Shown here piece after piece: positions 8 to 43,408 of a stretch of DNA of 64,000 bases. The stretch comes from Chitinophagaceae bacterium (lineage in GTDB: Bacteria; Bacteroidota; Bacteroidia; Chitinophagales; Chitinophagaceae), in assembly GCA_965246935.1 (NCBI GenBank), contig CBDFGC010000006.1, forward strand, positions 293,961 through 357,960. Direction: 5' to 3'. Below the pieces are notes generated by a model. The model was not told the DNA's origin, did not search any database, and saw only the letters and a list, made by a program, of their open reading frames with translations. Position 1 is the first letter of the stretch, and each line of letters starts with the position of its first letter. A program made the position numbers and the translations under genes.

Positions 8-1324
8 ATGTCAGGATTTACCCTTGCCATTGCAGGCAGGCCCAATGTGGGCAAAAGCACTTTTTTTAACCGGCTACTGGAGCAGCGACAGGCAATTGTG
101 GATGATGAGAGCGGCGTAACCCGTGACCGGCAGTACGGCATCAGCGAATGGAATGGCAAATCGTTTAACGTAATTGATACCGGTGGTTTTGTGCCCGACA
201 GCCAGGATGTATTTGAAAAAGAAATTGCCATACAGGTAAAAATAGCTGTGGAAGAAGCAAATGCCGTTTTGTTTATCGTAGATGTAACGACCGGCATTAC
301 TGACCTGGATGAAGCAATGGCCGATATACTGAGGCGCAGCACCAAACCAGTTTTTTTAGCGGTAAATAAAGTAGATAACAGCCAGCGGCAATTGGATGCT
401 ACCGAATTTTACAGTATGGGCTTTGAGAATACATTTTTCATTTCGGCCATTAGCGGCAGCGGCAGCGGAGAGTTGCTGGATGCGATAGCTGTACTCATAA
501 CACCGGAGTCATCGGAAGATGTACATAGCAATGATGAGCTACCCAAATTTGCCATTATCGGCCAGCCCAATGTTGGCAAAAGCAGTCTGCTAAATGCACT
601 GATTGGCCAGGAACGCACCATTGTAAGCAATATAGCCGGCACCACCCGTGATGCCATTCATACGCATTACAAACTGTTTCAGAAGGAATTCATCCTGATC
701 GATACGGCCGGTATCCGGCGGAAAAATAAGGTAGAGGAAGACCTGGAGTTTTACTCCGTTATCCGGGCCATCAAAGCGCTGGATGATGCCGATGTGTGCC
801 TGTTGCTGCTGGATGCCGAAAAAGGAATTACTGCCCAGGACCTGAGCATTTTTAGCCTGGCGGTAAAAAAAGGAAAGGGCATTGTACTGATTATTAATAA
901 ATGGGATCTGATAGAAAAGCAAACCAATACAGCCCGTGATTTTGAAAAGACACTAAGGCAAAAGCTGGCACCATTCAATGATATTCCGATCCTGTTTGTT
1001 TCGGTGCTGGAAAAAACCCGCATCTTTAAAGTAATAGAAACGGCACTGGATGTATACGAAAACAAAAGTCGCAAAGTAACCACCTCACAACTAAATGAAG
1101 TGATGCTAAAAGCAATCGGAGGCAATATGCCCCCAATGGTACGCGGTAACCTGATCAAGATAAAGTATGTAACGCAGTTGCCTACCAAAGTGCCATCGTT
1201 TGCCTTTTTCTGCAACCACCCCGACGACATCAAAACGCCTTACAAAAACTATTTGGAAAACCAGTTGCGGCAAAACTTCAATTTTAGCGGGGTACCCATC
1301 CGGATTTATTTACGGGATAAATAA
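8..1324 (+). CDS. der: Ribosome-associated GTPase Der (EngA), two tandem GTP-binding domains
   Basis: Two G-domains with Walker A GRPNVGKSTFFN and GQPNVGKSSLLN, DTGG/DTAG, NKVD/NKWD motifs; C-terminal KH-like domain; 438 aa typical length. Confidence 0.92.
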   Translation: MSGFTLAIAGRPNVGKSTFFNRLLEQRQAIVDDESGVTRDRQYGISEWNGKSFNVIDTGGFVPDSQDVFEKEIAIQVKIAVEEANAVLFIVDVTTGITDLDEAMADILRRSTKPVFLAVNKVDNSQRQLDATEFYSMGFENTFFISAISGSGSGELLDAIAVLITPESSEDVHSNDELPKFAIIGQPNVGKSSLLNALIGQERTIVSNIAGTTRDAIHTHYKLFQKEFILIDTAGIRRKNKVEEDLEFYSVIRAIKALDDADVCLLLLDAEKGITAQDLSIFSLAVKKGKGIVLIINKWDLIEKQTNTARDFEKTLRQKLAPFNDIPILFVSVLEKTRIFKVIETALDVYENKSRKVTTSQLNEVMLKAIGGNMPPMVRGNLIKIKYVTQLPTKVPSFAFFCNHPDDIKTPYKNYLENQLRQNFNFSGVPIRIYLRDK

Positions 1325-1759
1325 CAATGGCAATTTGCAGCTTGATGTTACAATTTATAATCGCTAAGAAAATTTTGGCTGTATAAATAAAATCTGCAAC
1401 TTTACGCATTAACAAACCACTAACTGTTTAAATGAATAAAACGTATACACTTCTCTTTAAAGATTGTTGCTTTTAGCAATAGCACTTCCAAAATAACGTC
1501 CTGATCCTATCGATGCTTCTGAATACATTTCATTCTCCTAATAAGTGATCCTTGCTTACTGCATGCAACTGAATATACCATAGAGCATCAAATGCCGGCC
1601 ACTACCAGCACAAATATAAAATGCAGCCGGGTGCGGTCCTCAGGAAAAACAAGGTGCAGGTATCCTTTATACCTTACTGAACATCTCTCTCCTCACAAGC
1701 TAATTAATCATTTATCTTAATTACTACTGATTTTCCTTTTTTAACCAACCTCTTTTTTT

Positions 1760-4700
1760 ATGCAAAAAAGCTACATTTTAAAAAATCGTATCCGGACAAT
1801 GGTATTAGCAACAGCTATGCTCTTTTCCGGTATATGTGCAAAAGCCCAGTTTTTCACAGTTAATCAATGCTCCGGAACACCCTCAGCAGGTATTGGTTCC
1901 AGTTCGTATGGCCCACTATATAGTACGGCTTCAGCGAATTCTACCAACCGCACGGCTGTTATTTATCCTGCTACCCAGCTAACCGGTGTTTCCGGCAACC
2001 TGTTATCTGCTATTTATTATTACCGGTTTTCTGCAAACGGAGCCTTGACAGGATCTCCCAATTTTAAAATTTATCTGAAAGAAGTTACTAATACAGACTG
2101 GGGTGCAAACTTCGCATCGTGGGCTGATACCATTGCCTCTGCCACACTTGTATTCAATGGTAATCCGGCTCCGTACGTAGGTACTTCACTCGGCTGGAAG
2201 GGGTTTCCGCTTACAACCGGGTTTACGTACTCAGGCACAAAAAATCTGGCGGTATTAACGGAGTACACAAATGCAACTGCAAGTATTCCCATTACCTGGA
2301 CATATGAGTACACCAGCCCTTGTGTAAACACGAGCAACAGTAATACAACTAAATACTCAAATAATACAACAGGTATATTACCGGTTTCATTAAGTTCGTC
2401 TGATTATCGCCGGCCTTATACCGGATTTGATAACGCACTTAGCTGTTACCCGCCATATGGTGTTAGTGCAACCGTCACTAGTAATTCATCCCAATTATCA
2501 TGGGTTGCTCCATCTGCTGCGCCGGCAGCAGGCTATGAATATTATTACAATACTTCCGGCACAGAACCAACGGCAGCAACTGTGCCTACCGGTACAACTG
2601 CTGCTGGTGTTACTACCGCTTCAATAAATAGCCTAACTCCTGGTACTACCTATTACTATTGGGTTCGTTCTGCCTGTAGCGGATCTTCTAAAAGCGCCTG
2701 GATCGGTTCCTCATTTGTAACTTCGTTTGTTACGCCTGCAAATGATCTGATCTGCAATGCCACCCCGGTAACAGTAAGTACCGGAGCTGCGTGTGCAAAT
2801 GCACTTACCGGTCAAACAACCGGAGGCGCTACAGCCGGACCTGCAGCCTGTACTGGTTCGGGAGCTGATGATGACGTATGGTATTCGTTTGTAGCAAATA
2901 ATACCACGCAAATTATTAGTTTGATCAACCCTTCAGTAACACCTGCAGGAAGCAGTAACGACCGGGTACATCAAATTTATTCAAGTTCAGACAATACCTG
3001 TACCGGTACGCTTACCAGTATAACATGTTCTGATCCTGAAGCGAGTACAACTACAGGTCTTGTAGTAGGTAAAACTTATTTTGTACGGGTACATTCTTAC
3101 AGTACAGGTAACTATACCACTTTTGATATATGTATAAGTGCCCCGCTCCCGCCACCGGCAAATGATAATATTTGTGGTGCTATCGCTTTAAGTGTTAGTC
3201 CGGGAAATACCTGTACCACTATTCTTACCAACCAGTCTACACAAAGTGCAACACAATCTTTAGCCGGATGTGCAGGTACTGCTGATGAGGATGTATGGTA
3301 TTCATTTGTAGCTGCCAATGCAACTCAAAATATCACGCTCTCCAATTCAGGTATCGGAGTTACTGATAGAGTACACCAGGTTTTTTCAAGTTCAGATAAC
3401 ACCTGTACAGGTACATTAACCAGCCTGCTCTGCTCAGATCCCGAATCAAGTACATTAACCGGATTAACTGTTGGGAAGACCTATTTTTTAAGGGTTTATT
3501 CATATACAAGCACTGTTACAAGTTATACCACATTCGATATTTGCATCACCGGCCCTACCGCCCCTCCTGCAAATGATAATGCTTCCGGGGCTATTGCCTT
3601 AACAGTTGGTGCCGGTTGTACGGGCGCCCCTTACAACAATACAGGGGCAACGCTTAATACGGGTGAACCTTATCCCTCCTGCTCCGGAACGGCAAACTCA
3701 CCCGTATGGTTTAAATTTGTAGCCCCTGCAAGCGGTGCAGTACGTATTTCAACCGACCTTGGAACAGCGCCAACCTTTGTAGATTCAAAAGTCGGTTTAT
3801 TTTCAGCTACCGACCCTGCAAACTATTCTACCTTTTCTATTATTTCATGCGATGACGATGGTGGCAGTGCAATTGGCTCAGGGTTTTTATCAGTATTGTA
3901 TGCATCCGGACTTACTGCCGGAACCACGTACTATGTGGCGGTAGATAAATACGCCAGCTCTACTACAACCGGGACTTATTGTATAGCTGTAGATGAATTG
4001 GCTTCTGCAATGCTTGCTACAACCAATACCTGTAGCAGTACCTATCAAACACCTTCCAGCAATTCAAGCACAACCTATACAGGCTGGGTGCCTTTGCTGG
4101 ATGCTACAAGCCGCCTGGTTGCTCTCGTGAGAAATCCAGCTGGGGGTGATGCAGGTTTATATAGCAATAGTCAGAATGTAAACACCGGCGCCGTGCGCCA
4201 ATCTAACGGAACTTATTATTTGAACAGGAATTACCGTATTTCAAATACAACGGCTACCAATGTGAATGTTCAGTTGTTCTTCCTGAACTCAGAATTAACT
4301 GCACTTGCAACTGCCGACCCACTTGTTACGCTTGCTAATATTGGTGTAACACGCCAGAACAATGGCACTTCCACAACTTGCTATAATAACGTAGATTTAA
4401 GTGGCGGAGCATTAAGTTTCATACCGCAAACGGGTAACGGAACAGCCAATGGTGTCAACTGGATCAACTTCACTACGCCTGCCTTCTCTAACTTTTACCT
4501 CAACAGGGCCGGAACAGCACTTCCGATTTCGCTGCAATATCTGAAAGGAATCAGAGCAGGAACCGGCAATGCCCTGAACTGGAAGGTAAACTGTACTTCG
4601 GTAAGCATCACCATGGAACTGGAACGTTCTTCTGACAGCCGCAGCTTTAAAGCTATTACCAGTATCACGGCTACACAGGCACGTTGTGGCCAGCCATTCG

Positions 4701-10388: not shown

Positions 10389-13300
10389 GTGGCAATCATA
10401 AACTTAGATATTTTTGATGCCTCATATTCTATCATGCGTGCTTCTAATCTTCAGGTTTTTCAAACCAGTAACCCTGGCCGCTGGCAGCGCTTCCGGTGGG
10501 GTAGCCGGGCTTTTATAGCCATTTCATTTTTGTTTTTAGTAGTCCTCTGTATTGCGCTTTGGCGTAGCCACTACCCGGCAGTGCCATTAAAAGAGGAATT
10601 TAAAAAAGCTATTGTAGCAGCTAAACCTTTTTTACAGGAAACCAGGCTGTCAAAAGAATATAAAGGCTTTCGCCAATATATCAGCGAAAAAAAACCTTAT
10701 ACCCGGGAAAGCTTTACCCGTGTCAGCCACAGATTTAAGTCGCAGCCGTTGCCTGGAAGTATGATTGCTGATACCGGATGGACCCATTTTCCCTGCGGGA
10801 TCCGTTCTGCATTTTACGTAGCCTGGGATCCGCAATCCTATTTTTCTCTTAAACGGTGCATCAGCAAGGTAAACCTGGTGCTGCCCGAATGGTTTTTTAT
10901 AGATCCGGTAGCGGATACCGTTACCACCAAGATGGACCCCCGCGGTTTTGACCTGATGAAGCAAAGCGGTGTACGGATTATGCCGATGCTTAGCAACAAC
11001 TACGGCGGTACATTCAGACCCGAAGCTATTAGCCGCATTTTTAAAAATAGTGAAAAACGCCACCGGTTAATACAGGATGTGCTTAATGAATGTGTAAAAA
11101 ATAAGTTTGTAGGTGTAAATGTAGATTTGGAAGAAGTGCAGGAAGACGGCGACGAACCGATGATCCTTTTTATGAAAGAACTGAGCGAAGCTTTTCACGC
11201 AAAAGGGTTGCTGGTAACACAGGATGTTTCCCCGTTTAATACCGATTACAATTATAAAGCGCTCAGCGACTATACCGATTACCTGTTCCTGATGGCATAT
11301 GATGAGTATGCTAACGACAGCGACCCCGGCCCTATCAGCTCTCAAAAATGGATTGAAGCCGCTGTTGACCTGGTAGCCAAAGAGATTCCTTCCAATAAAA
11401 TTATTTTAGGCATTGCCGGCTATGGCTACGACTGGAGTGGTAAAGGCGATGCACAGGATGTTACTTATCAGCAGGCCCTGACCATTGCACGGGAAAGCGA
11501 AGCAGATTTTACATTTGACAACGACACCTATAACCTGCATTACGATTATGCCGACGACAGCAACCGGGTACACCAGGTTTATTTTACCGATGCTGCTACT
11601 AACTTCAATACCATGCGTTTTGCTACAGAATATGGGTTGGCTGGTACGGCCCTCTGGCGGCTGGGTAGTGAGGATAGCCGCCTCTGGGATTTTTATAACT
11701 TGGATATGCGGAAAGAGGCGCTGCAAAATTTTGATTTTAAAGAGTTTAACTCAGTAGAAAGCAGCAATGATGTTGACTATATTGGCGATGGTGAAGTGCT
11801 GGATGTAGTAAGTACGCCTAAGCAGGGGCATATTACCCCAACTATTGACACTTCGGAGATGCTGATAGCAGAAGAAAAATACGATTCCCTTCCCAGTATG
11901 TTCGTGGTAAAACGCTACGGCAAGGTAAAACCTAAGCAACTGCTGCTTACATTTGATGACGGGCCCGATGAAAGTTATACGCCGCAGGTATTGGATATTT
12001 TATCCCGTTATCATGTACCAGCCGCATTTTTTTTAGTGGGAATCAATGCAGAGAATAATCTGCCGCTGGTAAAACGAATTTACCGGGAGGGCTTTGAAAT
12101 TGGCAATCACACTTTTACCCATCCTAATATGGCAGAAGTAAGCAGTGTGCGGGCCAGGCTTGAAATGAAGTTAACCCGGCTGATTATTGAGTGCATTACC
12201 GGCCACAGCACCATTCTTTTCCGTGCACCTTTTAATGCCGATAGTGAACCGGAACTTGCAGAAGAAATTATACCAGTGGCCAATGCCCGGCTGGAAAACT
12301 ATTTAGATGTAGGGGAAAGCATTGATCCGGAAGACTGGCAGCCAGGTGTTAGTGCAGATACCATTTTTCAACGGGTAGTAACAGCTGTAGAAAACAGTAC
12401 GAAGGATACTGTGACTGGCCGCACAGGACGCACCATATTGCTGCATGATGCCGGTGGCGACGACCGTACCCAAACCATCAAAGCATTACCCCGTATTATT
12501 GAGTATTTTCAGAAACGGGGATATACCTTTATTACCATCTCCGAACTGCTTCATAAAAAGAAAGAAGAGCTGATGCCGGAAGTGCCAAAAGGCAGTGGCT
12601 ATAATATCATGCAGGTGAACCTGGTATTAGTAGAGATAGGTTATTGGGGCGGTCACTTTCTATTTGCCCTCTTTATTGTATTTATCATTTTGTCGTGTAT
12701 CCGGCTGGCAGGTATGGTGGTGCTTGCCGTAAAGCAAAGATTAAAATCGGCTGCTGCTTTGGTTGCTCTGCCGGCGAACAATAAGCATACTAAAGTTTCC
12801 ATTATTGTTCCGGCTTACAATGAGGAAGTGAATGCAGTTCATTCACTGGAAAATCTGCTACGGCAGGATTACCCGGCTTTCAATATTGTATTTGTAGACG
12901 ATGGCAGCAAAGACAGTACGTATGAAAAAGTAAAGAAAGCATTCAAAGGCCATCCTAAAGTGCAGGTATTTACTAAGCCGAATGGCGGTAAGGCATCGGC
13001 ACTTAATTTCGGTATTGCACAAACAGATGCTCCATATGTGGTGTGCATAGATGCAGATACGCAACTAAAACCGGATGCAGTAAGCCTGCTAATGCGGCAT
13101 TTTACCTCACCCCCTGCCTCCCGACCGGGGTCCGGGACAGGCTCTCTAAACGGGGTGGAGAGGGGTACCTCTTACGAACATGTATTACAAAATATAGCAG
13201 TGGGTTCAAAAGAATCAAATTTTCAAAACTATTTGGCAAGTTCAGGTAGCAATAACCCGAACTCCAAAATCAATCAGCGCAGGTTGAACAGCAGGAACCC

Positions 13301-14135
13301 ATTGGTGAATAACAATTTACTAAGCAACATAGAGGCACCCCTCTCTACAGGGAGAGGGGCAGGGGGTGAGGCTATTGTTGGTGCAGTAGCCGGTAACGTG
13401 AAAGTTGGCAATGCCCGTAACCTGCTTACCCGCTGGCAGGATCTTGAATACATCAGCAGCCAGAACTTCGACCGGCAGGCATTTGCTTATATCAATGCCA
13501 TTACAGTAGTACCGGGCGCTATTGGTGCATTTAGCAAACAGGCATTGGAAGATGCAGGTGGCTTTACAACTGACACGCTGGCGGAGGATTGTGACCTTAC
13601 GATTCGTATTTTAAAAGCAGGCTATGCAATTGAAAATGAAAATAGAGCCGTAGCCATGACGGAGGCGCCGGAAACCCTTAGTCAGTTTTTAAAACAACGT
13701 ACCCGCTGGAGTTTTGGTGTAATGCAAACCTTTTGGAAACACCGGGACACCCTCTTTAATAATAAATATGGCACACTTGGCTGGGTGGCCATGCCTAATA
13801 TTTTGTTGTTTCAATTTATCATTCCCTTCTTTTCACCGCTGGCCGATGTGTTCATGCTTATTGGAATTGCGAGTGGTAATGCAGCCCGTATTGGCAGGTA
13901 TTACCTCATTTTTATGCTGATAGATGCAGCCATTGCGTTTACCGCTTTTTGGTTTGAAAAGGAAGATTTTAAAAAACTCATCTGGCTGATACCGCAACGG
14001 CTGTGCTACCGCTGGATTATGTATGTGGTGCTGTTCCGCAGCTTAAAAAAAGCAATAAAAGGCGAACTACAGCATTGGGGTGTATTAAAACGCACTGGTA
14101 ATGTACAGATGAGAGACAAAGCAGTTCCGGTGTAA
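10389..14135 (+). CDS. Membrane-anchored tri-domain polysaccharide synthase: GH18-like domain + CE4 (NodB) polysaccharide deacetylase + processive family-2 glycosyltransferase (PgaC/NodC/chitin-synthase-like), with in-frame MITE insertion in GT2 domain
   Basis: N-terminal TM; GH18-like VGVNVDLEE; NodB motifs LLTFDDGPDESYT and HTFTHPNM; GT2 motifs VSIIVPAYNEE, FVDDGSKDST, DADTQL, LAEDCDLT (TED), QRTRW (QxxRW); C-terminal TM helices; 88-aa low-complexity insert between DAD and TED motifs. Confidence 0.8.
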   Translation: MAIINLDIFDASYSIMRASNLQVFQTSNPGRWQRFRWGSRAFIAISFLFLVVLCIALWRSHYPAVPLKEEFKKAIVAAKPFLQETRLSKEYKGFRQYISEKKPYTRESFTRVSHRFKSQPLPGSMIADTGWTHFPCGIRSAFYVAWDPQSYFSLKRCISKVNLVLPEWFFIDPVADTVTTKMDPRGFDLMKQSGVRIMPMLSNNYGGTFRPEAISRIFKNSEKRHRLIQDVLNECVKNKFVGVNVDLEEVQEDGDEPMILFMKELSEAFHAKGLLVTQDVSPFNTDYNYKALSDYTDYLFLMAYDEYANDSDPGPISSQKWIEAAVDLVAKEIPSNKIILGIAGYGYDWSGKGDAQDVTYQQALTIARESEADFTFDNDTYNLHYDYADDSNRVHQVYFTDAATNFNTMRFATEYGLAGTALWRLGSEDSRLWDFYNLDMRKEALQNFDFKEFNSVESSNDVDYIGDGEVLDVVSTPKQGHITPTIDTSEMLIAEEKYDSLPSMFVVKRYGKVKPKQLLLTFDDGPDESYTPQVLDILSRYHVPAAFFLVGINAENNLPLVKRIYREGFEIGNHTFTHPNMAEVSSVRARLEMKLTRLIIECITGHSTILFRAPFNADSEPELAEEIIPVANARLENYLDVGESIDPEDWQPGVSADTIFQRVVTAVENSTKDTVTGRTGRTILLHDAGGDDRTQTIKALPRIIEYFQKRGYTFITISELLHKKKEELMPEVPKGSGYNIMQVNLVLVEIGYWGGHFLFALFIVFIILSCIRLAGMVVLAVKQRLKSAAALVALPANNKHTKVSIIVPAYNEEVNAVHSLENLLRQDYPAFNIVFVDDGSKDSTYEKVKKAFKGHPKVQVFTKPNGGKASALNFGIAQTDAPYVVCIDADTQLKPDAVSLLMRHFTSPPASRPGSGTGSLNGVERGTSYEHVLQNIAVGSKESNFQNYLASSGSNNPNSKINQRRLNSRNPLVNNNLLSNIEAPLSTGRGAGGEAIVGAVAGNVKVGNARNLLTRWQDLEYISSQNFDRQAFAYINAITVVPGAIGAFSKQALEDAGGFTTDTLAEDCDLTIRILKAGYAIENENRAVAMTEAPETLSQFLKQRTRWSFGVMQTFWKHRDTLFNNKYGTLGWVAMPNILLFQFIIPFFSPLADVFMLIGIASGNAARIGRYYLIFMLIDAAIAFTAFWFEKEDFKKLIWLIPQRLCYRWIMYVVLFRSLKKAIKGELQHWGVLKRTGNVQMRDKAVPV
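13106..13371. mobile_element. MITE-like element (~264-266 bp) with perfect 14-bp terminal inverted repeats inserted in-frame in the GT2 domain
   Basis: TIR cctcaccccctgcc (13106-13119) / ggcagggggtgagg (13358-13371); internal modules shared with 30385-30432 and 43081-43137; no stop codons in host frame. Confidence 0.65.
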
Positions 14136-30199: not shown

Positions 30200-30298
30200 T
30201 TACCGGGTACTGTCCTGAACTGGGATTTATGGGATGAATGGGATAAATACATGGGATAAATACAGATGTTGTAGAGACGCCATGCTGGCGTCTTACCT
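30200..30298. repeat. Second copy (inverted) of the gggataa/hairpin repeat element
   Basis: gggatttatgggatgaatgggataaatacatgggataaatac...tagagacgccatgctggcgtct matches reverse complement of 5343-5425. Confidence 0.6.
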
Positions 30299-30384
30299 GG
30301 CGGATCAAAATAAGAATTAATAAGAGATAAAATTATATGTTGTCTGGTGTAATACCGCAACTGCCAATAAACAATCAGCAAAAC

Positions 30385-30432
30385 TTCACAGAGGCACCCC
30401 TTCTCCACCTGTGGAGAAGGGGAAGGGGGTTG
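30385..30432. repeat. Solo palindromic module related to the right end of the 13106-13371 MITE
   Basis: gaggcaccccttctccacctgtggagaaggggaagggggttgagg vs gaggcacccctctctacagggagaggggcagggggtgagg. Confidence 0.6.
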
Positions 30433-30435
30433 AGG

Positions 30436-31857
30436 TTAATTCCTTTCCCAAACCCCCGTTACAAATTTCTCTACAGCCCGCCGTACACCTCGGCCCGTGC
30501 TATTATGGTTATTTACCATAATGGAAAAAAGCAGCAGCTTCTTACTTTTACAAATTAAATAACCGCTTAATGCAACCTGCCCGCTGAGGGTACCGGTTTT
30601 AGCAAAAATATTTGAACCTAATTTCTGGTAATAACTGGTTAGCGTACCGGTATTTCCTTTGGGTAAAATATTGTGGATGCGATCTAACCCAAATTCGTTT
30701 TTTATTTTCAGCAGTAGTGTAACAATATCCTGTGGGGTAAACTGGTTGTACCGGCTGAGGCCGCTACCATCCACCCAAACGGGTTTTTGCGGCAGGTCTT
30801 TTAAATCATTTTTTAATAAGGTATCAATGATATCTTCATCATTCATGTAACCTAATTTTTCATTGCTTACCATTAATAAACTTTGCTCCGCAAAAAAATT
30901 ATCGCTGCGGTGCATCATGGGTTTTAGAAGAGAGTCGGTTGGTTGAGAGTGTATGGTGTGAGTAATTAGATGATTGGGAATTCTACTGTATAAGCTGTTA
31001 CCACTAAGCCATCCTGATTTAATATTATGAATTTCATAATCTTTATTTAAAATATTAACGGCTGTATTAGCGCCATCTGTAACGAATGGGATTTCTTCTG
31101 TAGAAAAAGTAATATTGCTCTCATCGTAACTCAGCGATAACTCATTGCTTATCCTTCCTCTTTTAATTGAGAAATGTAACAAGGCTTTTTTTCTTTCAAC
31201 ACTATCCCGCATTTTGTAAGCAGCAACAACGGATGAGGGAAGAATAAAATAATTGCTTATGCCTGAACCAAAATAAGAAGGTGTAACTATCCATTTCAAA
31301 TTTGCCGAATGGCTTTCACTTCCGATTGTATAGCTATTTAGTTTAAACTTTACCGTATTTCCCTGAATAGGAAAAGGGCTACGCTCAGCCATATAATCGC
31401 TATTGTAATCATCCCATGACCAGCCCATTCCTAAAGCACTGTCTTTCCAGTTGCCCCAGGATAAATTGATTGCTGCCTTTTGGTTTTTTAAAAATTCTAA
31501 AACGGGCTGTTTAGGGAAATCCGGGTGTAAAAAAGTAGGGTCACCGGTTGCAAAAATGTTAATGGCTGTATCACTAAATTGTTGGTACTGCAATCCTACC
31601 AAACTATCTCCCAAATACTTCATCGCCGCATAGCAGGTAAATAATTTCGTATTACTCGCAGGCACAAAATATTTATTACCCTGATAATTGTAAACATATT
31701 TGTTAGCAACAGGATCATAAATACTAATGCCAACATGTGCCCCAGCTAAAGCCGTATCAGTTAACATTGCCTGCTGCGATTTTGCAAAATAGCGGCCAGG
31801 CGAGCAGGAAGTCATACCGGCTGCTGCAACAGCAATAAGAAAGAGAATTTTTTGCAT
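30436..31857 (-). CDS. dacB: D-alanyl-D-alanine carboxypeptidase/endopeptidase, PBP4 (peptidase S13)
   Basis: Lipoprotein signal; active-site SNTK (PASNTKLFT); PBP4 family length 473 aa. Confidence 0.8.
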   Translation of the reverse strand: MQKILFLIAVAAAGMTSCSPGRYFAKSQQAMLTDTALAGAHVGISIYDPVANKYVYNYQGNKYFVPASNTKLFTCYAAMKYLGDSLVGLQYQQFSDTAINIFATGDPTFLHPDFPKQPVLEFLKNQKAAINLSWGNWKDSALGMGWSWDDYNSDYMAERSPFPIQGNTVKFKLNSYTIGSESHSANLKWIVTPSYFGSGISNYFILPSSVVAAYKMRDSVERKKALLHFSIKRGRISNELSLSYDESNITFSTEEIPFVTDGANTAVNILNKDYEIHNIKSGWLSGNSLYSRIPNHLITHTIHSQPTDSLLKPMMHRSDNFFAEQSLLMVSNEKLGYMNDEDIIDTLLKNDLKDLPQKPVWVDGSGLSRYNQFTPQDIVTLLLKIKNEFGLDRIHNILPKGNTGTLTSYYQKLGSNIFAKTGTLSGQVALSGYLICKSKKLLLFSIMVNNHNSTGRGVRRAVEKFVTGVWERN

Positions 31858-32553: not shown

Positions 32554-34719
32554 ATGCAGGGGAAACAATTACGAAAATTAGAAGCCGAGCTGTGGCGGGC
32601 TGCCGACCAGCTTCGGGCCAACAGTAAACTAACTGCTTCAGAATATTCAATGCCTGTGCTGGGGCTTATCTTTTTACGGCATGCTTTCAACCGGTTTAAG
32701 AAAGTAAAGGTTGATATTGAAAAGGATTTGCCTACGCACCCGCAACGTGGTAAACGGGCGTTGACCAAGAAAGACTTTGAAGAAAAAAACAGTTTGTTTT
32801 TGCCCGAAACGGCACAGTTCGATTACCTGGTGGCCCTACCGGAAAATACCGATATTGGTGAGGCAATTGATGCCGCCATGAAGGCTATTGAAGAAGCGTA
32901 CGATAACCTGAAAGGCGTACTGCCAAAGAACTTTTCCATTTTTAGCAAAGACCTGCTGCGGGAACTGCTTCGCATTTTTAATAAGGAAGTATTGCAAAAG
33001 GCCGAAGGTGATTTGTTTGGAAAGATTTACGAATACTTCCTCAACAAATTTGCCATGACCGGCGCACAGGAAGGCGGTGAATTTTTTACGCCCATGAGCC
33101 TGGTGCAAACCATTGTAAATGTAATAGAGCCCGACCATGGCATTGTGCTGGACCCCGCCTGCGGCAGTGCCGGTATGTTTGTGCAAACCGGCTATTTCAT
33201 TGAGAGCGAAGGCTTGCGGCCCGCTGAAAAAGTAACCTTTTACGGACAGGAAAAAGCCGAACAAAATACCCGGCTGGCCAAAATGAATATGGCCGTGCAT
33301 GGGCTGGAAGGCAATATACAGGAAGGCAATACTTTTTACGAAGACAAGCACAACCTGGCCGGCAGTGCCGACTTTGTAATGGCTAATCCGCCATTTAATG
33401 TGGATGGCGTGGACAAAGGCAAAGATGCTGTAAAGAAAGATCCCCGCCTGATGCTGGATGGCAAAGTAGCCCTGCCTAAAAATGACAATGCTAACTATCT
33501 GTGGATTCAGTATTTCTACAATTACCTGAAGCCAACCGGAAGGGCCGGGTTTGTAATGGCCAGCAGCGCCTCCGATGCGGGGCATAGTGAACGGGACATT
33601 CGGGAAAAACTGGTATGCACCGGTGCGGTAGATGTAATGATGGCGGTGGGCAATAACTTTTTCTATACCCGTAGCCTTCCCTGCACGTTGTGGTTTTATG
33701 ATAGGGGAAAGGAAAGTCTGAACCAGGATTTACAGGATGATAGAATGAGCAGGATAACGATAGCAAATAAGCAAAATCCTGGCTATCAGGCCATTCATGA
33801 AAATCCTGGTTCAGACAATTTTCGCAGCAAAGACACCGTGCTGATGCTGGATGCCCGCAAAATATACCGGAAGGTAACCAGCAAGGTAAACGATTTTAGC
33901 CCGGAGCAATTGCAAAACCTGATTTGCATTGTAGGCCTGTACCGGGGCGAAAATGAAAAATTTGCTACTACTGTAAAAAACTATTTACAGAAAGCATCCG
34001 ATGCTGCTTTTGCTGCGGTAGATGTTGTGGAACAATGGCAGCAAACAGTACAGCGCATTATTGGCAATGAGAAGATAAAAACCATTAGCGAAACACTATA
34101 CGAAAGCTTAAACAACCTGGAAGGCTACGAACCTGTGCAGCAGTTGCAAAAAGATTTTATAGATGCTGTAAAGAATAAGGCAACCACCGCAGGTTACGGT
34201 TCTACCTCCTCCGCTTTTGGGGGAGGTTGGGTGGGAGCCACCCTCCGTAAGCCATTGGATAAATTAGTAAAAATCCTGCTGGATACCGTTGCTGCTGCCC
34301 AGCGGAATGATGGCCTGAATAAGCTGCCGGCCTGGAAGGCGCTGAACCTGAAAGAAGAACTGGATACCCTGCGCAACCTGCAACAGCAACTAAGCGGAAA
34401 TGTAGAGGAAGAAGAGCCTGGCCTGCTGCATGAGATAGAGTATTATTACAAGCAAGCACACTGGCTTACCAGCCGTTTCCCGGATGGCGTGTATGCCGAT
34501 GTGGAAGGCTTGTGCAAAGTGGTAACGCAAGCCGAAATAGCAACCAAAGACTGGAGCCTGAGCCCCGGCCGTTATGTGGGCGTAGATGCCGCAACGGATG
34601 ACGGCATTGATTACGAAGAACGCCTGGCCGAAATACACATTGAGTTGGAAAGCCTGAACGAAGAAGCCATTACTTTAGCAAATTTGATAAGCGAAAATTA
34701 TAAGGAGTTGGTGGTATGA
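32554..34719 (+). CDS. hsdM: Type I restriction-modification system methyltransferase subunit HsdM (long form, 721 aa)
   Basis: HsdM N-domain, AdoMet motif LDPACGSAGMF, catalytic NPPF (MANPPFNV), C-terminal DWSLSPGRYVG; overlaps hsdS start by 4 nt. Confidence 0.88.
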   Translation: MQGKQLRKLEAELWRAADQLRANSKLTASEYSMPVLGLIFLRHAFNRFKKVKVDIEKDLPTHPQRGKRALTKKDFEEKNSLFLPETAQFDYLVALPENTDIGEAIDAAMKAIEEAYDNLKGVLPKNFSIFSKDLLRELLRIFNKEVLQKAEGDLFGKIYEYFLNKFAMTGAQEGGEFFTPMSLVQTIVNVIEPDHGIVLDPACGSAGMFVQTGYFIESEGLRPAEKVTFYGQEKAEQNTRLAKMNMAVHGLEGNIQEGNTFYEDKHNLAGSADFVMANPPFNVDGVDKGKDAVKKDPRLMLDGKVALPKNDNANYLWIQYFYNYLKPTGRAGFVMASSASDAGHSERDIREKLVCTGAVDVMMAVGNNFFYTRSLPCTLWFYDRGKESLNQDLQDDRMSRITIANKQNPGYQAIHENPGSDNFRSKDTVLMLDARKIYRKVTSKVNDFSPEQLQNLICIVGLYRGENEKFATTVKNYLQKASDAAFAAVDVVEQWQQTVQRIIGNEKIKTISETLYESLNNLEGYEPVQQLQKDFIDAVKNKATTAGYGSTSSAFGGGWVGATLRKPLDKLVKILLDTVAAAQRNDGLNKLPAWKALNLKEELDTLRNLQQQLSGNVEEEEPGLLHEIEYYYKQAHWLTSRFPDGVYADVEGLCKVVTQAEIATKDWSLSPGRYVGVDAATDDGIDYEERLAEIHIELESLNEEAITLANLISENYKELVV

Positions 34720-42816: not shown

Positions 42817-43408
42817 ATGCGCCGTAGGTGCAACCTGTTTGTAGCAAACAGACATCATTGACGTTGGTGGCTGCCACGTAGTGGCTACCTGATCAGAGAA
42901 GGGGGTAGCCACTACGTGGCAATGATTCCCTTTTTCGTTTTGTTTTCTACAAACAGAAAGCCCCGATGGGGCTTATCTTAATGACATTGGCTTAAAGGGG
43001 GCTAACGGTTCACCTTCACATTTGATGCCTACTCCAGGATTTACGCATTTGTCTATTGTTTTGGTGGCACAAATCAAGTTCCCCCTTTAGAGTCTGTCCC
43101 GGACCCCAGCCGGTTGGTTAGGGGCAACCAACCCCGGATAAAAACATCCTGTAACTGAAGAAGTTAGACAACTTTACTTAGTAAAGTGGTCAAAATAACT
43201 TGTACAATAGAAGCGTGATATTACCCCAGCCTTAGCAAACAAAGAGGCAAAGGGAATCATTGCCACGTAGTGGCTACCCCTTCTCTGATCAGGTAGCCAC
43301 TACGTGGCATGCACCAACATCAATGATTTCTGTCTTCTACAAACAGGTTGCACCTACGGCGCATAACTGATACATTAATCCTTATCTTAATGACATTGCC
43401 CTAAAGGG
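42817..43408. repeat. Composite REP-containing inverted-repeat structure: ~120-bp arms (42817-42960 vs 43243-43364) each containing a REP inverted pair, flanking a ~280-bp centre with further hairpins; flanked by ~40-bp direct repeats at 42711-42750 and 43570-43609
   Basis: Reverse complement of 42817-42960 matches 43245-43364 almost base-for-base; cttatcttaatgacattgSc.taaagggg direct copies at 42971-43000 and 43381-43408; module ccccctttagagtctgtcccggacccc shared with MITE at 13106. Confidence 0.7.

Follow-up and report, generated by a model that had tools for sequence, protein, structure and literature searches.

An in-frame palindromic insertion in a processive glycosyltransferase gene of a Chitinophagaceae bacterium and its probable descent from elements encoding a DUF559 endonuclease

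An inverted-repeat-bounded segment within a GT2 domain

In a 64,000-nucleotide stretch of a Chitinophagaceae bacterium (contig CBDFGC010000006.1 of assembly GCA_965246935.1, forward strand positions 293,961 to 357,960; henceforth the window, whose own numbering is used throughout) a gene at 10389-14135 on the plus strand encodes a 1248-residue protein that combines a GH18-like domain, a CE4 polysaccharide deacetylase domain and a membrane-integrated processive glycosyltransferase of family 2 (GT2; PgaC/NodC/HAS type). The catalytic region of this GT2 domain contains a 267-nucleotide segment (13105-13371, plus strand), which is bounded by terminal inverted repeats (TIRs), is capable of assuming a long hairpin fold, and is translated in frame as 89 codons (TSPPAS...GRGAGGE). 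Based on sequence comparisons we propose, with a probability of roughly 0.68, that this segment is a non-autonomous, nuclease-less derivative of an element in which a pair of hairpin arms bounds a DUF559 endonuclease gene, that it inherited its open frame from that gene, and that it is tolerated by the glycosyltransferase as a surface loop.

The segment had earlier been described, in a sequence-only reading, as a MITE (miniature inverted-repeat transposable element) of about 264 bp and 88 residues at 13106-13371; its place was correctly given, and its size needs correction, as it begins one base earlier, at 13105, and comprises 267 nt or 89 codons. The perfect 14-bp TIRs noted in that reading are indeed complementary at 14 of 14 positions (CCTCACCCCCTGCC at 13105-13118 and GGCAGGGGGTGAGG at 13358-13371), and they are the only two matches to this sequence in the window at up to two mismatches, with an expectation of 0.22 and two or more matches in none of 100 shuffled sequences. 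Imperfect arms of about 41-68 nt continue inward from the TIRs, and the internal palindromic modules that had also been claimed include a second inverted repeat (13155-13172 with 13331-13348, 18 nt, 89% complementary) and a third one (13198-13207 with 13295-13304), so that the whole 267-nt element folds as a single long hairpin. The minimum free energy of the element DNA is -48.9 kcal/mol, as against -28.5 +/- 3.5 for shuffled sequences (z = -5.9), of which none in 200 folded as well. The GC content is 69% at the ends, 36% in the core and 43% across the whole window, and no tandem structure is seen in the element. Only one of its six frames, namely that of the host gene, is free of stop codons, a state attained by 1-2% of shuffled sequences; the assertion that the insert introduces neither a stop nor a frame change holds for the entire 1248-codon frame.

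Several regions can be distinguished in the element, which is flanked by ...CATTTTA on the left and CTATTGTT... on the right. The left arm (13105-13179, plus strand) is degraded, and consists of the 14-nt TIR, a nested 23-nt hairpin module (TCCCGACCGGGGTCCGGGACAGG, 13119-13141), a weakened hairpin CTCTC..GAGAG and then GGGGTACCTCT. The left subterminal region (13144-13209, plus strand) encodes LNGVERGTSYEHVLQNIAVGS and is followed by an AT-rich core (13210-13312, plus strand), and by the right subterminal region together with the right arm (13313-13371, plus strand). The right arm itself (13324-13371), read on the minus strand as CCTCACCCCCTGCCCCTCTC-loop-GAGAGGGGTGCCTCT, is close to the consensus of the family described below.

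Collinearity with elements encoding a DUF559 endonuclease

A full-size relative of the window element was found in the metagenome contig Ga0193753_10009145 (L007), where a leucyl-tRNA synthetase (LeuRS) open reading frame (ORF) of 1060 aa (93-3275) contains an arm-flanked DUF559 domain. The two arms (1348-1398 on the plus strand and 1903-1955 on the minus strand) enclose about 610 nt which are free of stops in the LeuRS frame, and the insert of about 205 aa encodes a full DUF559 domain (PF04480, E 2.5e-35), with no Hint or splicing domain and no intron detected in it by Pfam and Rfam. A further, solo arm lies in frame within the same leuS gene at 539-580.

Positions 40-105 of the window element, corresponding to its left subterminal region, match L007 1363-1428 with 78.8% identity over 66 nt (blastn, E 1.5e-10), the match including the 14-mer TTACAAAATATAGC, and positions 209-267 match L007 1892-1955 with 76.6% identity over 64 nt (E 7.5e-8). 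The similarity therefore extends 18-37 nt inward beyond the arms on both sides, and is collinear and in the same frame: BLASTP aligns LNGVERGTSYEHVLQNIAVGS with LHGVERGASPQDVLQNIAGGA on the left (14 of 21 residues identical) and PLVNNNLLSNIEAPLST with PIVTNKQTSGEAPLAT on the right. The right subterminal region and arm are homologous not only to L007 but also to two further loci, L012 and L016 (..AATAAACAA..TTACGG|AGAGGCACCCC..). Between these conserved flanks, the approximately 150 residues which hold the DUF559 domain in L007 give way in the window element to approximately 30 residues without any relative, the AT-rich core occupying the place of the DUF559 domain; tblastn and domain searches found neither DUF559 nor any other domain in the 267 nt.

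Arms and subterminal regions are likewise common to the window element and the DUF559 inserts of two other loci. In the 90-kb contig L017 an arm-flanked DUF559 occupies the same leuS site as in L007, and this site is also occupied in the proteins P0121 and P0122. The leuS gene of L017 (2472-5827) is called as four successive ORFs of 201, 284, 341 and 230 aa, and its splitting could be due to further interruptions or to assembly frameshifts. In L024 inverted arms flank DUF559 in frame within chorismate synthase (left arm 28.8 bits, E 4e-6). Additionally, in L019 inverted arms of about 65 nt surround an ORF for DUF559 which runs on into IspF.

Among the best 120 DUF559 homologs of the L007 insert, 54 are at least 230 aa long and are in frame with a host protein. 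The hosts include IspF (dozens of cases), guanylate kinase (Gmk), RNase H, LeuRS at a second site and, with the DUF559 in an internal position, HolC (the DNA polymerase III chi subunit) and AroC. In-frame DUF559 domains of this kind occur among proteins P0123-P0226 and at the loci L019, L024, L018 and L023, many of them from Prevotella/Segatella-type genomes, and the cluster of P0182 alone has 202 members. Most cases are N-terminal read-throughs that are annotated as fusion proteins. Their DUF559 junctions show peptides typical of translated arms, such as TPLPSGGAGGG, GAPLSFGEGMGVR and SPSPLERELEGEV, and certain DUF559 proteins that are short and free-standing likewise have peptides of this type at their start or end.

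A dispersed family of hairpin arms

At its right end (13324-13371) the window element has AGAGGCACCCCT...GGGG.AGGGGGT in common with a second site in the window, at 30383-30435. A metagenome pattern scan with this common arm sequence recovered 11 loci, with six clear relatives (L006, L007, L009, L012, L015 and L016) on contigs of 40-46% GC. The resulting arm consensus of about 45 nt (alignment A3) reads CCTCACCCCC-NN-CCCCTCTC, a variable loop with compensating stem extensions, GAGAGGGG and TGCCTCTCCG, with a TGCCTCT end. A covariance model (R1), for which 11 arms were used, scores external arms at 60-68 bits and the right arm of the window element at 62.7 bits (E about 2e-13); the left arm, being degraded, reaches 21.2 bits (E 0.0015-0.003). 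The solo arm at 30383-30435 (minus strand) scores 47.4 bits (E about 1e-9), which bears out the sequence-only reading, where another copy of the right-end module had been placed at 30385-30432. This arm is intergenic and borders on a gene for an S13 peptidase (30436-31857, minus strand) at the 3' end of the latter. It is also one of three repeat types stacked in the intergenic region 30200-30440 between convergent genes, the others being a CTGAACYRGGATTT-family end and the hairpin gtagagacgccatgctggcgtcttac.

The window copy is not a pristine new insertion, as its left arm is degraded (21 bits compared to 63 for the right arm) and carries the nested 23-nt module, whose insertion is visible in the arm alignment. 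As a separate observation, a 19-nt match to this module with one mismatch (18/19; blastn-short E 0.013) is present on the minus strand at 43089-43107, in an intergenic GC-rich hairpin region (43090-43137), and the two may represent a third small repeat family.

Paired inverted arms around an AT-rich core, without the nuclease, also recur as miniature siblings, namely L012 (348 nt), L016 (296 nt), two copies in L009 (174 and 135 nt) and L015 (180 nt), the core of L016 being 71% identical to that of L012. The L012, L016 and 174-nt L009 copies have stops in all six frames, indicating that they are intergenic and MITE-like. A scan of a genome collection for the exact TIR pair recovered three arm pairs with unrelated interiors, in metagenome-assembled genomes (MAGs) of Planctomycetaceae, Acidobacteria and Anaerolineae. 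In these loci (L003 251-532, L004 2790-3045 and L005 576-832) an identical 22-mer, CCTCACCCCCTGCCCCTCTCCC, forms inverted pairs about 250 nt apart with more copies between them; its presence in MAGs of three other phyla implies that the hairpin core is very widely distributed. Scans of viral contigs with the arm pattern and the TIR pair gave no matches, and neither did a metagenome scan with the exact inner arms.

These results bear upon the idea that the segment is a lineage-specific linker which grew in place by slippage or duplication, its palindromy being incidental. Its low-complexity composition and the variable length of the loop in this protein family would fit such an origin, but growth in place would not account for a right arm that is recognised at 62.7 bits by a model derived from unrelated contigs, for the 22-mer shared with MAGs of three other phyla, or for a perfect TIR beyond chance expectation in a segment free of tandem structure, and we regard this explanation as scarcely credible.

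The insert in the context of the host enzyme

Pfam detects the GH18 domain of the host protein at residues 206-426, Polysacc_deac_1 at 512-616 and GT2 in two parts, at 804-910 and 997-1158. The best NCBIfam match, also in two stretches, is PgaC_IcaA (TIGR03937), with 179 bits against an equivalog cut-off of 422; hence the enzyme is a PgaC/NodC-like processive GT2, as had been suggested, rather than a demonstrated PgaC. Its motifs include DDGS, DAD (CIDADT), AED (LAEDCD, 13581-13589) and QRTRW, along with VGAVAGN. The insert had been placed between CIDADT and the VGAVAGN, TED and QRTRW motifs; this position and the first and last of these downstream motifs are as stated, and the acidic motif is AED in the protein. 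In an AlphaFold2 (AF2) model of the GT2 part, derived from a 71-sequence alignment (predicted TM-score 0.76), most of the core has a predicted local distance difference test score (pLDDT) above 90. The top Foldseek matches of this model are hyaluronan synthase, BcsA/cellulose synthase and chitin synthases, and motifs and model together display the GT-A fold with D, DxD, (T/A)ED and QxxRW followed by a C-terminal transmembrane bundle.

Alignments of the protein with the Pfam and NCBIfam GT2/PgaC profiles and with sequences from the PDB are all interrupted between residues ~119 and ~209 of the GT2 segment. For comparison with orthologs we used the 120 best matches, MAG proteins of Chitinophagaceae type whose identity to the window protein, itself absent from the collection, does not exceed ~74-78%. 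Both the DAD and GAVAGN motifs are present in 98 of these, and none of the 98 has the insert: the distance between the motifs is 24-33 aa in 82 and 37-71 aa in 16, and only the window protein has 111 aa. In a neighbour-joining tree based on the flanking conserved sequence the long loops are spread over at least four lineages, and this loop can accordingly be seen as a length-tolerant spot of the GT2 domain. The 90-aa insert peptide had no match among 5.8e9 protein clusters and nothing significant among 1.84e9 representatives, where a single marginal match is probably due to low complexity; thus there is no other translated copy of this core in these data. In the DNA of two long-loop orthologs (L001 and L002) GC-rich hairpins lie at both edges of the loop around an AT-richer core. 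Model R1 gave only non-significant matches there (E 0.2-1.3) and we did not count these loci as family members, though their hairpins hint at broadly similar events of greater age.

Such loops might favor a composite history for the window segment, wherein a long loop of low complexity was already present, two independent solo arms, inverted relative to each other, were inserted at its two edges, and the 267 nt were never a single mobile unit. Solo arms do exist, both intergenically (30383-30435) and in frame (L007 539-580), the core of the element has no homolog, and the ortholog loops, ranging from 24 to 71 aa, include several with GC-rich hairpins at their edges. Nevertheless, the similarity to L007 continues for 18-37 nt inward from both arms, collinearly and in the same frame; there is a further internal inverted repeat and the whole unit folds as one hairpin (z = -5.9); siblings of similar size have the same architecture; and no ortholog has an arm-free loop of comparable length. 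Two separate arm insertions therefore appear unlikely, and insertion of one unit derived from a DUF559 element is the explanation that we favor.

In the AF2 model the insert is located between the helix that follows directly upon the DxD motif (110-119) and the strand 210-219 (VGAVAGNVKV), and its residues 127-204 (GT2-segment numbering) have pLDDT below 50 and no secondary structure. The structure prediction that had been suggested as a check hence puts the insert in a disordered loop, and the ortholog alignment and the search for other copies of the ends, recommended alongside it, returned respectively its absence from orthologs and the solo arm, arms and arm pairs described above. Most likely the enzyme tolerates the insert as a disordered loop of 89 residues at its surface, rich in Pro, Gly, Ser and Asn; the fold of the enzyme is predicted to be kept, and the enzyme is presumably still active. 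The converse possibility is that the insertion inactivated the GT2 and created a pseudogene whose open frame survives for now, a concern raised by the addition of 89 residues only 20 residues past the catalytic DxD. This is quite unlikely given the intact 1248-codon ORF with all signature motifs, the location of the site in the one GT2 loop that accepts 0-47 extra residues in orthologs, the confident GT2 fold from which the insert is extruded in the AF2 model, and the in-frame presence of related elements in genes, leuS among them, that are essential and must stay functional. Conversely, the loop might have been domesticated, in the sense of a disordered segment that gained a function (e.g. 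in regulation or in protein-protein contacts of the synthase/deacetylase/GH18 machine) and is kept by selection. The frame is open, and extended loops have been kept at this site in several lineages of orthologs independently; as against this, the peptide is conserved in no other protein and is predicted to be disordered, which makes domestication very unlikely.

A proposed origin and its difficulties

Taken as a whole, the architecture of these loci suggests the following scenario. Full-size members of the family would be units of about 0.55-0.6 kb, in which inverted GC-rich arms surround a single ORF for a DUF559 protein, a Vsr-like PD-(D/E)xK endonuclease. As this ORF would lack a stop codon of its own, it would be translated through both arms as a part of the host protein. 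The copy in the window would have lost the endonuclease core and retained the arms and linker-coding subterminal regions of both sides, oriented and in frame as in the parent. Its open frame would then be the frame of the parental ORF, which would explain both why a single frame of six is open and why the GT2 is not truncated. The element probably came by insertion rather than by local growth, and would have entered the loop between the helix after DxD and the next beta-strand, which is naturally variable in length among orthologs. The arms-plus-DUF559 unit would represent the autonomous form, by which the window copy might have been mobilised in trans. In the available accounts of the PD-(D/E)xK nucleases DUF559 is placed in a Vsr/DUF559/DUF2726 clade along with the homing endonuclease I-Bth0305I (PMC3424549; PMC9403480), and this makes nuclease-driven spread plausible, either by homing-type repair or by cut-and-paste at the hairpin ends. 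In essential genes selection suffices to filter for copies that keep the frame, and a stop-less nuclease ORF would render the survival of such copies likely instead of rare. The designation MITE remains apt as to the small size, the TIRs, the lack of a transposase ORF and the ends common to a larger coding element, and the segment would be better described as a nuclease-less derivative of a DUF559 element than as an anonymous MITE.

Several observations weigh against this scenario. A search for a target-site duplication (TSD) at the window copy and in L007 and L017 found none. Of 8 elements, 4 have short direct repeats (4-5 nt) no more than 3 nt from their ends, with a null of ~6% per element; these are only suggestive as their offsets are inconsistent. 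Neither a second full-length copy of the element nor a DUF559 gene was found in the 64-kb window. The central 100 nt of the element have no relative in protein clusters, representatives or contig comparisons, and consequently its interpretation as a deletion derivative draws on the two flanks only. With 13105-13371 removed, the remaining loop (HF-T-I-VGAVAGN) has 2 aa fewer than that of any ortholog, from which it follows that the boundaries or the history of the element are not perfectly clean. In L021, a contig of a Chitinophagales MAG (JAIBAZ010000005.1), a free-standing 137-aa DUF559 gene lies between direct repeats of about 90 nt (2880-2975 and 3375-3465), each holding two hairpins (ttccctaaagggaa and ctcccttcagggag), unlike the inverted arms; the association of DUF559 with the present arm family is therefore not universal. 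To our knowledge, DUF559 has never been shown to mobilise anything. Finally, the direction of change could be the reverse, with a MITE having captured a DUF559 gene.

If the derivation from a DUF559 element is correct, it would link an otherwise 'anonymous' in-frame MITE to a candidate autonomous partner, a DUF559/Vsr-like endonuclease found in frame in leuS, aroC, holC, ispF and gmk. With such a candidate at hand, the question of mobilisation becomes experimentally testable, a partner having always been lacking for elements of the type of the Rickettsia palindromic elements (RPEs). The window gene would also be an instance in which a mobile element has enlarged the catalytic domain of a processive polysaccharide synthase by 89 residues of loop with the predicted fold kept, in other words of loop accretion by selfish DNA outside Rickettsia, and the scenario could account for unusual domain combinations and wrongly called gene starts in genomes of Bacteroidota. 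The reach of the family is underlined by the hairpin core that it has in common, as an identical 22-mer, with MAGs of other phyla. More speculatively, and at somewhat less than even odds in our estimation, arms and DUF559 ORF might together constitute an undescribed class of minimal selfish element of ~0.6 kb, which lives in ORFs without splicing, whose stop-less endonuclease is translated within the host protein or runs on into its N-terminus, and whose GC-rich arms double as linkers rich in Pro, Gly and Ser that insulate the fold of the host. Its nuclease-less derivatives, such as the window copy, and solo arms might then quite generally supply bacterial enzymes with new disordered loops, and it would explain the widespread IspF-, Gmk-, RNase H-, HolC-, AroC- and LeuRS-DUF559 'fusion proteins' in Bacteroidota annotations.

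Relationship to previously described systems

In-frame palindromic MITEs are already known, and the present case is another one, in a Bacteroidota-type genome. The RPEs, as summarised in a later account (Ogata et al. 2000/2002; PMC10969869), are short palindromic repeats that lie in frame in unrelated protein-coding genes. The window element resembles them in being an in-frame palindromic insertion translated as an extra peptide segment compatible with the host fold; this resemblance is one of behaviour only. The phylum differs (Bacteroidota-like here), and presumably so does the sequence family. Further, RPEs are without a known nuclease-carrying full-size partner, whereas the present arms also bound a DUF559 ORF, and the present family is additionally found intergenically and as solo arms. 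Among bacterial MITEs, in-frame copies are known of ERIC, QMITE1 of Coxiella and those of Anabaena (PMC10969869, PMC5896051). The present family has the small size, TIRs, strong hairpin, dispersed copies and occasional ORF fusions of such elements, and like them has no transposase. It differs in that the candidate autonomous partner is not an insertion sequence of the DDE type but a unit of ~0.6 kb, whose sole ORF is a PD-(D/E)xK domain of ~110 aa read through from the host gene, and in that no TSD was found at the window copy.

The REP/REPIN sequences mobilised by RAYT (PMC3733652) are similar in comprising hairpin modules of ~40 nt, single and as inverted doublets; the present family differs from them by the lack of a GTAG/CGTC tag at the end of the palindrome, by its presence inside genes and by its longer AT-rich spacers. 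An assignment to REP/REPIN was rejected, as neither GTAG nor CGTC stands at the ends of the arm consensus A3, which are CCTCACCCC and TGCCTCT, and no RAYT was present among the window ORFs examined, none having been sought beyond these.

The full-size relatives are more reminiscent of inteins and introns with EDxHD/Vsr-like homing endonucleases, such as I-Bth0305I, as outlined in the accounts of these enzymes (Taylor et al. 2011; PMC3424549, PMC9403480). In both instances a selfish gene for a nuclease of the Vsr/DUF559 clan lies in frame in conserved housekeeping genes, the same leuS site being occupied in two of the present contigs. The differences are the many host genes, the TIR-arm boundaries, and the lack of a Hint or splicing domain or intron, on account of which the insert would stay in the mature protein; the window copy in addition has no nuclease. 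Neither of these classes was retained for the window element. Pfam gave no Hint match in the host or in the L007 insert, the junctions (HF|TSPP and GGEA|IVG) are without splice residues and the 89 aa are predicted to be disordered, all of which speaks against an intein. A group I or II intron or other known RNA was set aside, as Rfam yielded no match at E <= 1 in the span 12900-13600 and none at gathering score across the window.

Similar GC-rich palindromic mobile modules are represented by the double-hairpin elements of fungal mitochondrial DNA. The GC clusters of yeast mitochondria (PMC4478555) are likewise mobile, palindromic and rich in GC, lie in a genome that is richer in AT and are at times tolerated in coding sequence. 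Both kinds differ in being organellar and unrelated in sequence, and have no known association with DUF559. What provisionally appears to go beyond these descriptions is the tie to a nuclease-carrying, arm-bounded, read-through element and the breadth of in-frame DUF559 architectures. The arm 20- and 21-mers occurred in no paper found by our literature search, among the 22 of 25 papers mentioning DUF559 that were listed none concerned in-frame or arm-bounded elements as judged by title, and no description of a link between DUF559 and in-frame elements was found within the literature searched.

Other in-frame repeats in the window

The window contains additional repeats within a coding region, in an ORF (32554-34719) for a 721-aa HsdM protein; nothing in the solved structures of HsdM corresponds to residues ~413-651 of this protein. 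The GC-rich hairpin cctccgcttttgggggaggttgggtggga at 34208-34254 is translated in frame as STSSAFGGGWVGATL; it was considered and rejected as a member of the arm family, as R1 gives it only 5 bits. The segment 33716-33816 of the same ORF is a second small TIR-bounded in-frame element, of a different family. Its TIRs of 22 nt (GTCTGAACCAGGATTTACAGGA and TCATGAAAATCCTGGTTCAGAC) are 91% complementary, with a perfect core of 14 nt, and it encodes ~33 extra residues (LNQDLQDDRMSRITIANKQNPGYQAIHENPGSDN) without a counterpart where the HsdM structure 3khk from the PDB aligns. An end related to this element is found at 30215-30228.

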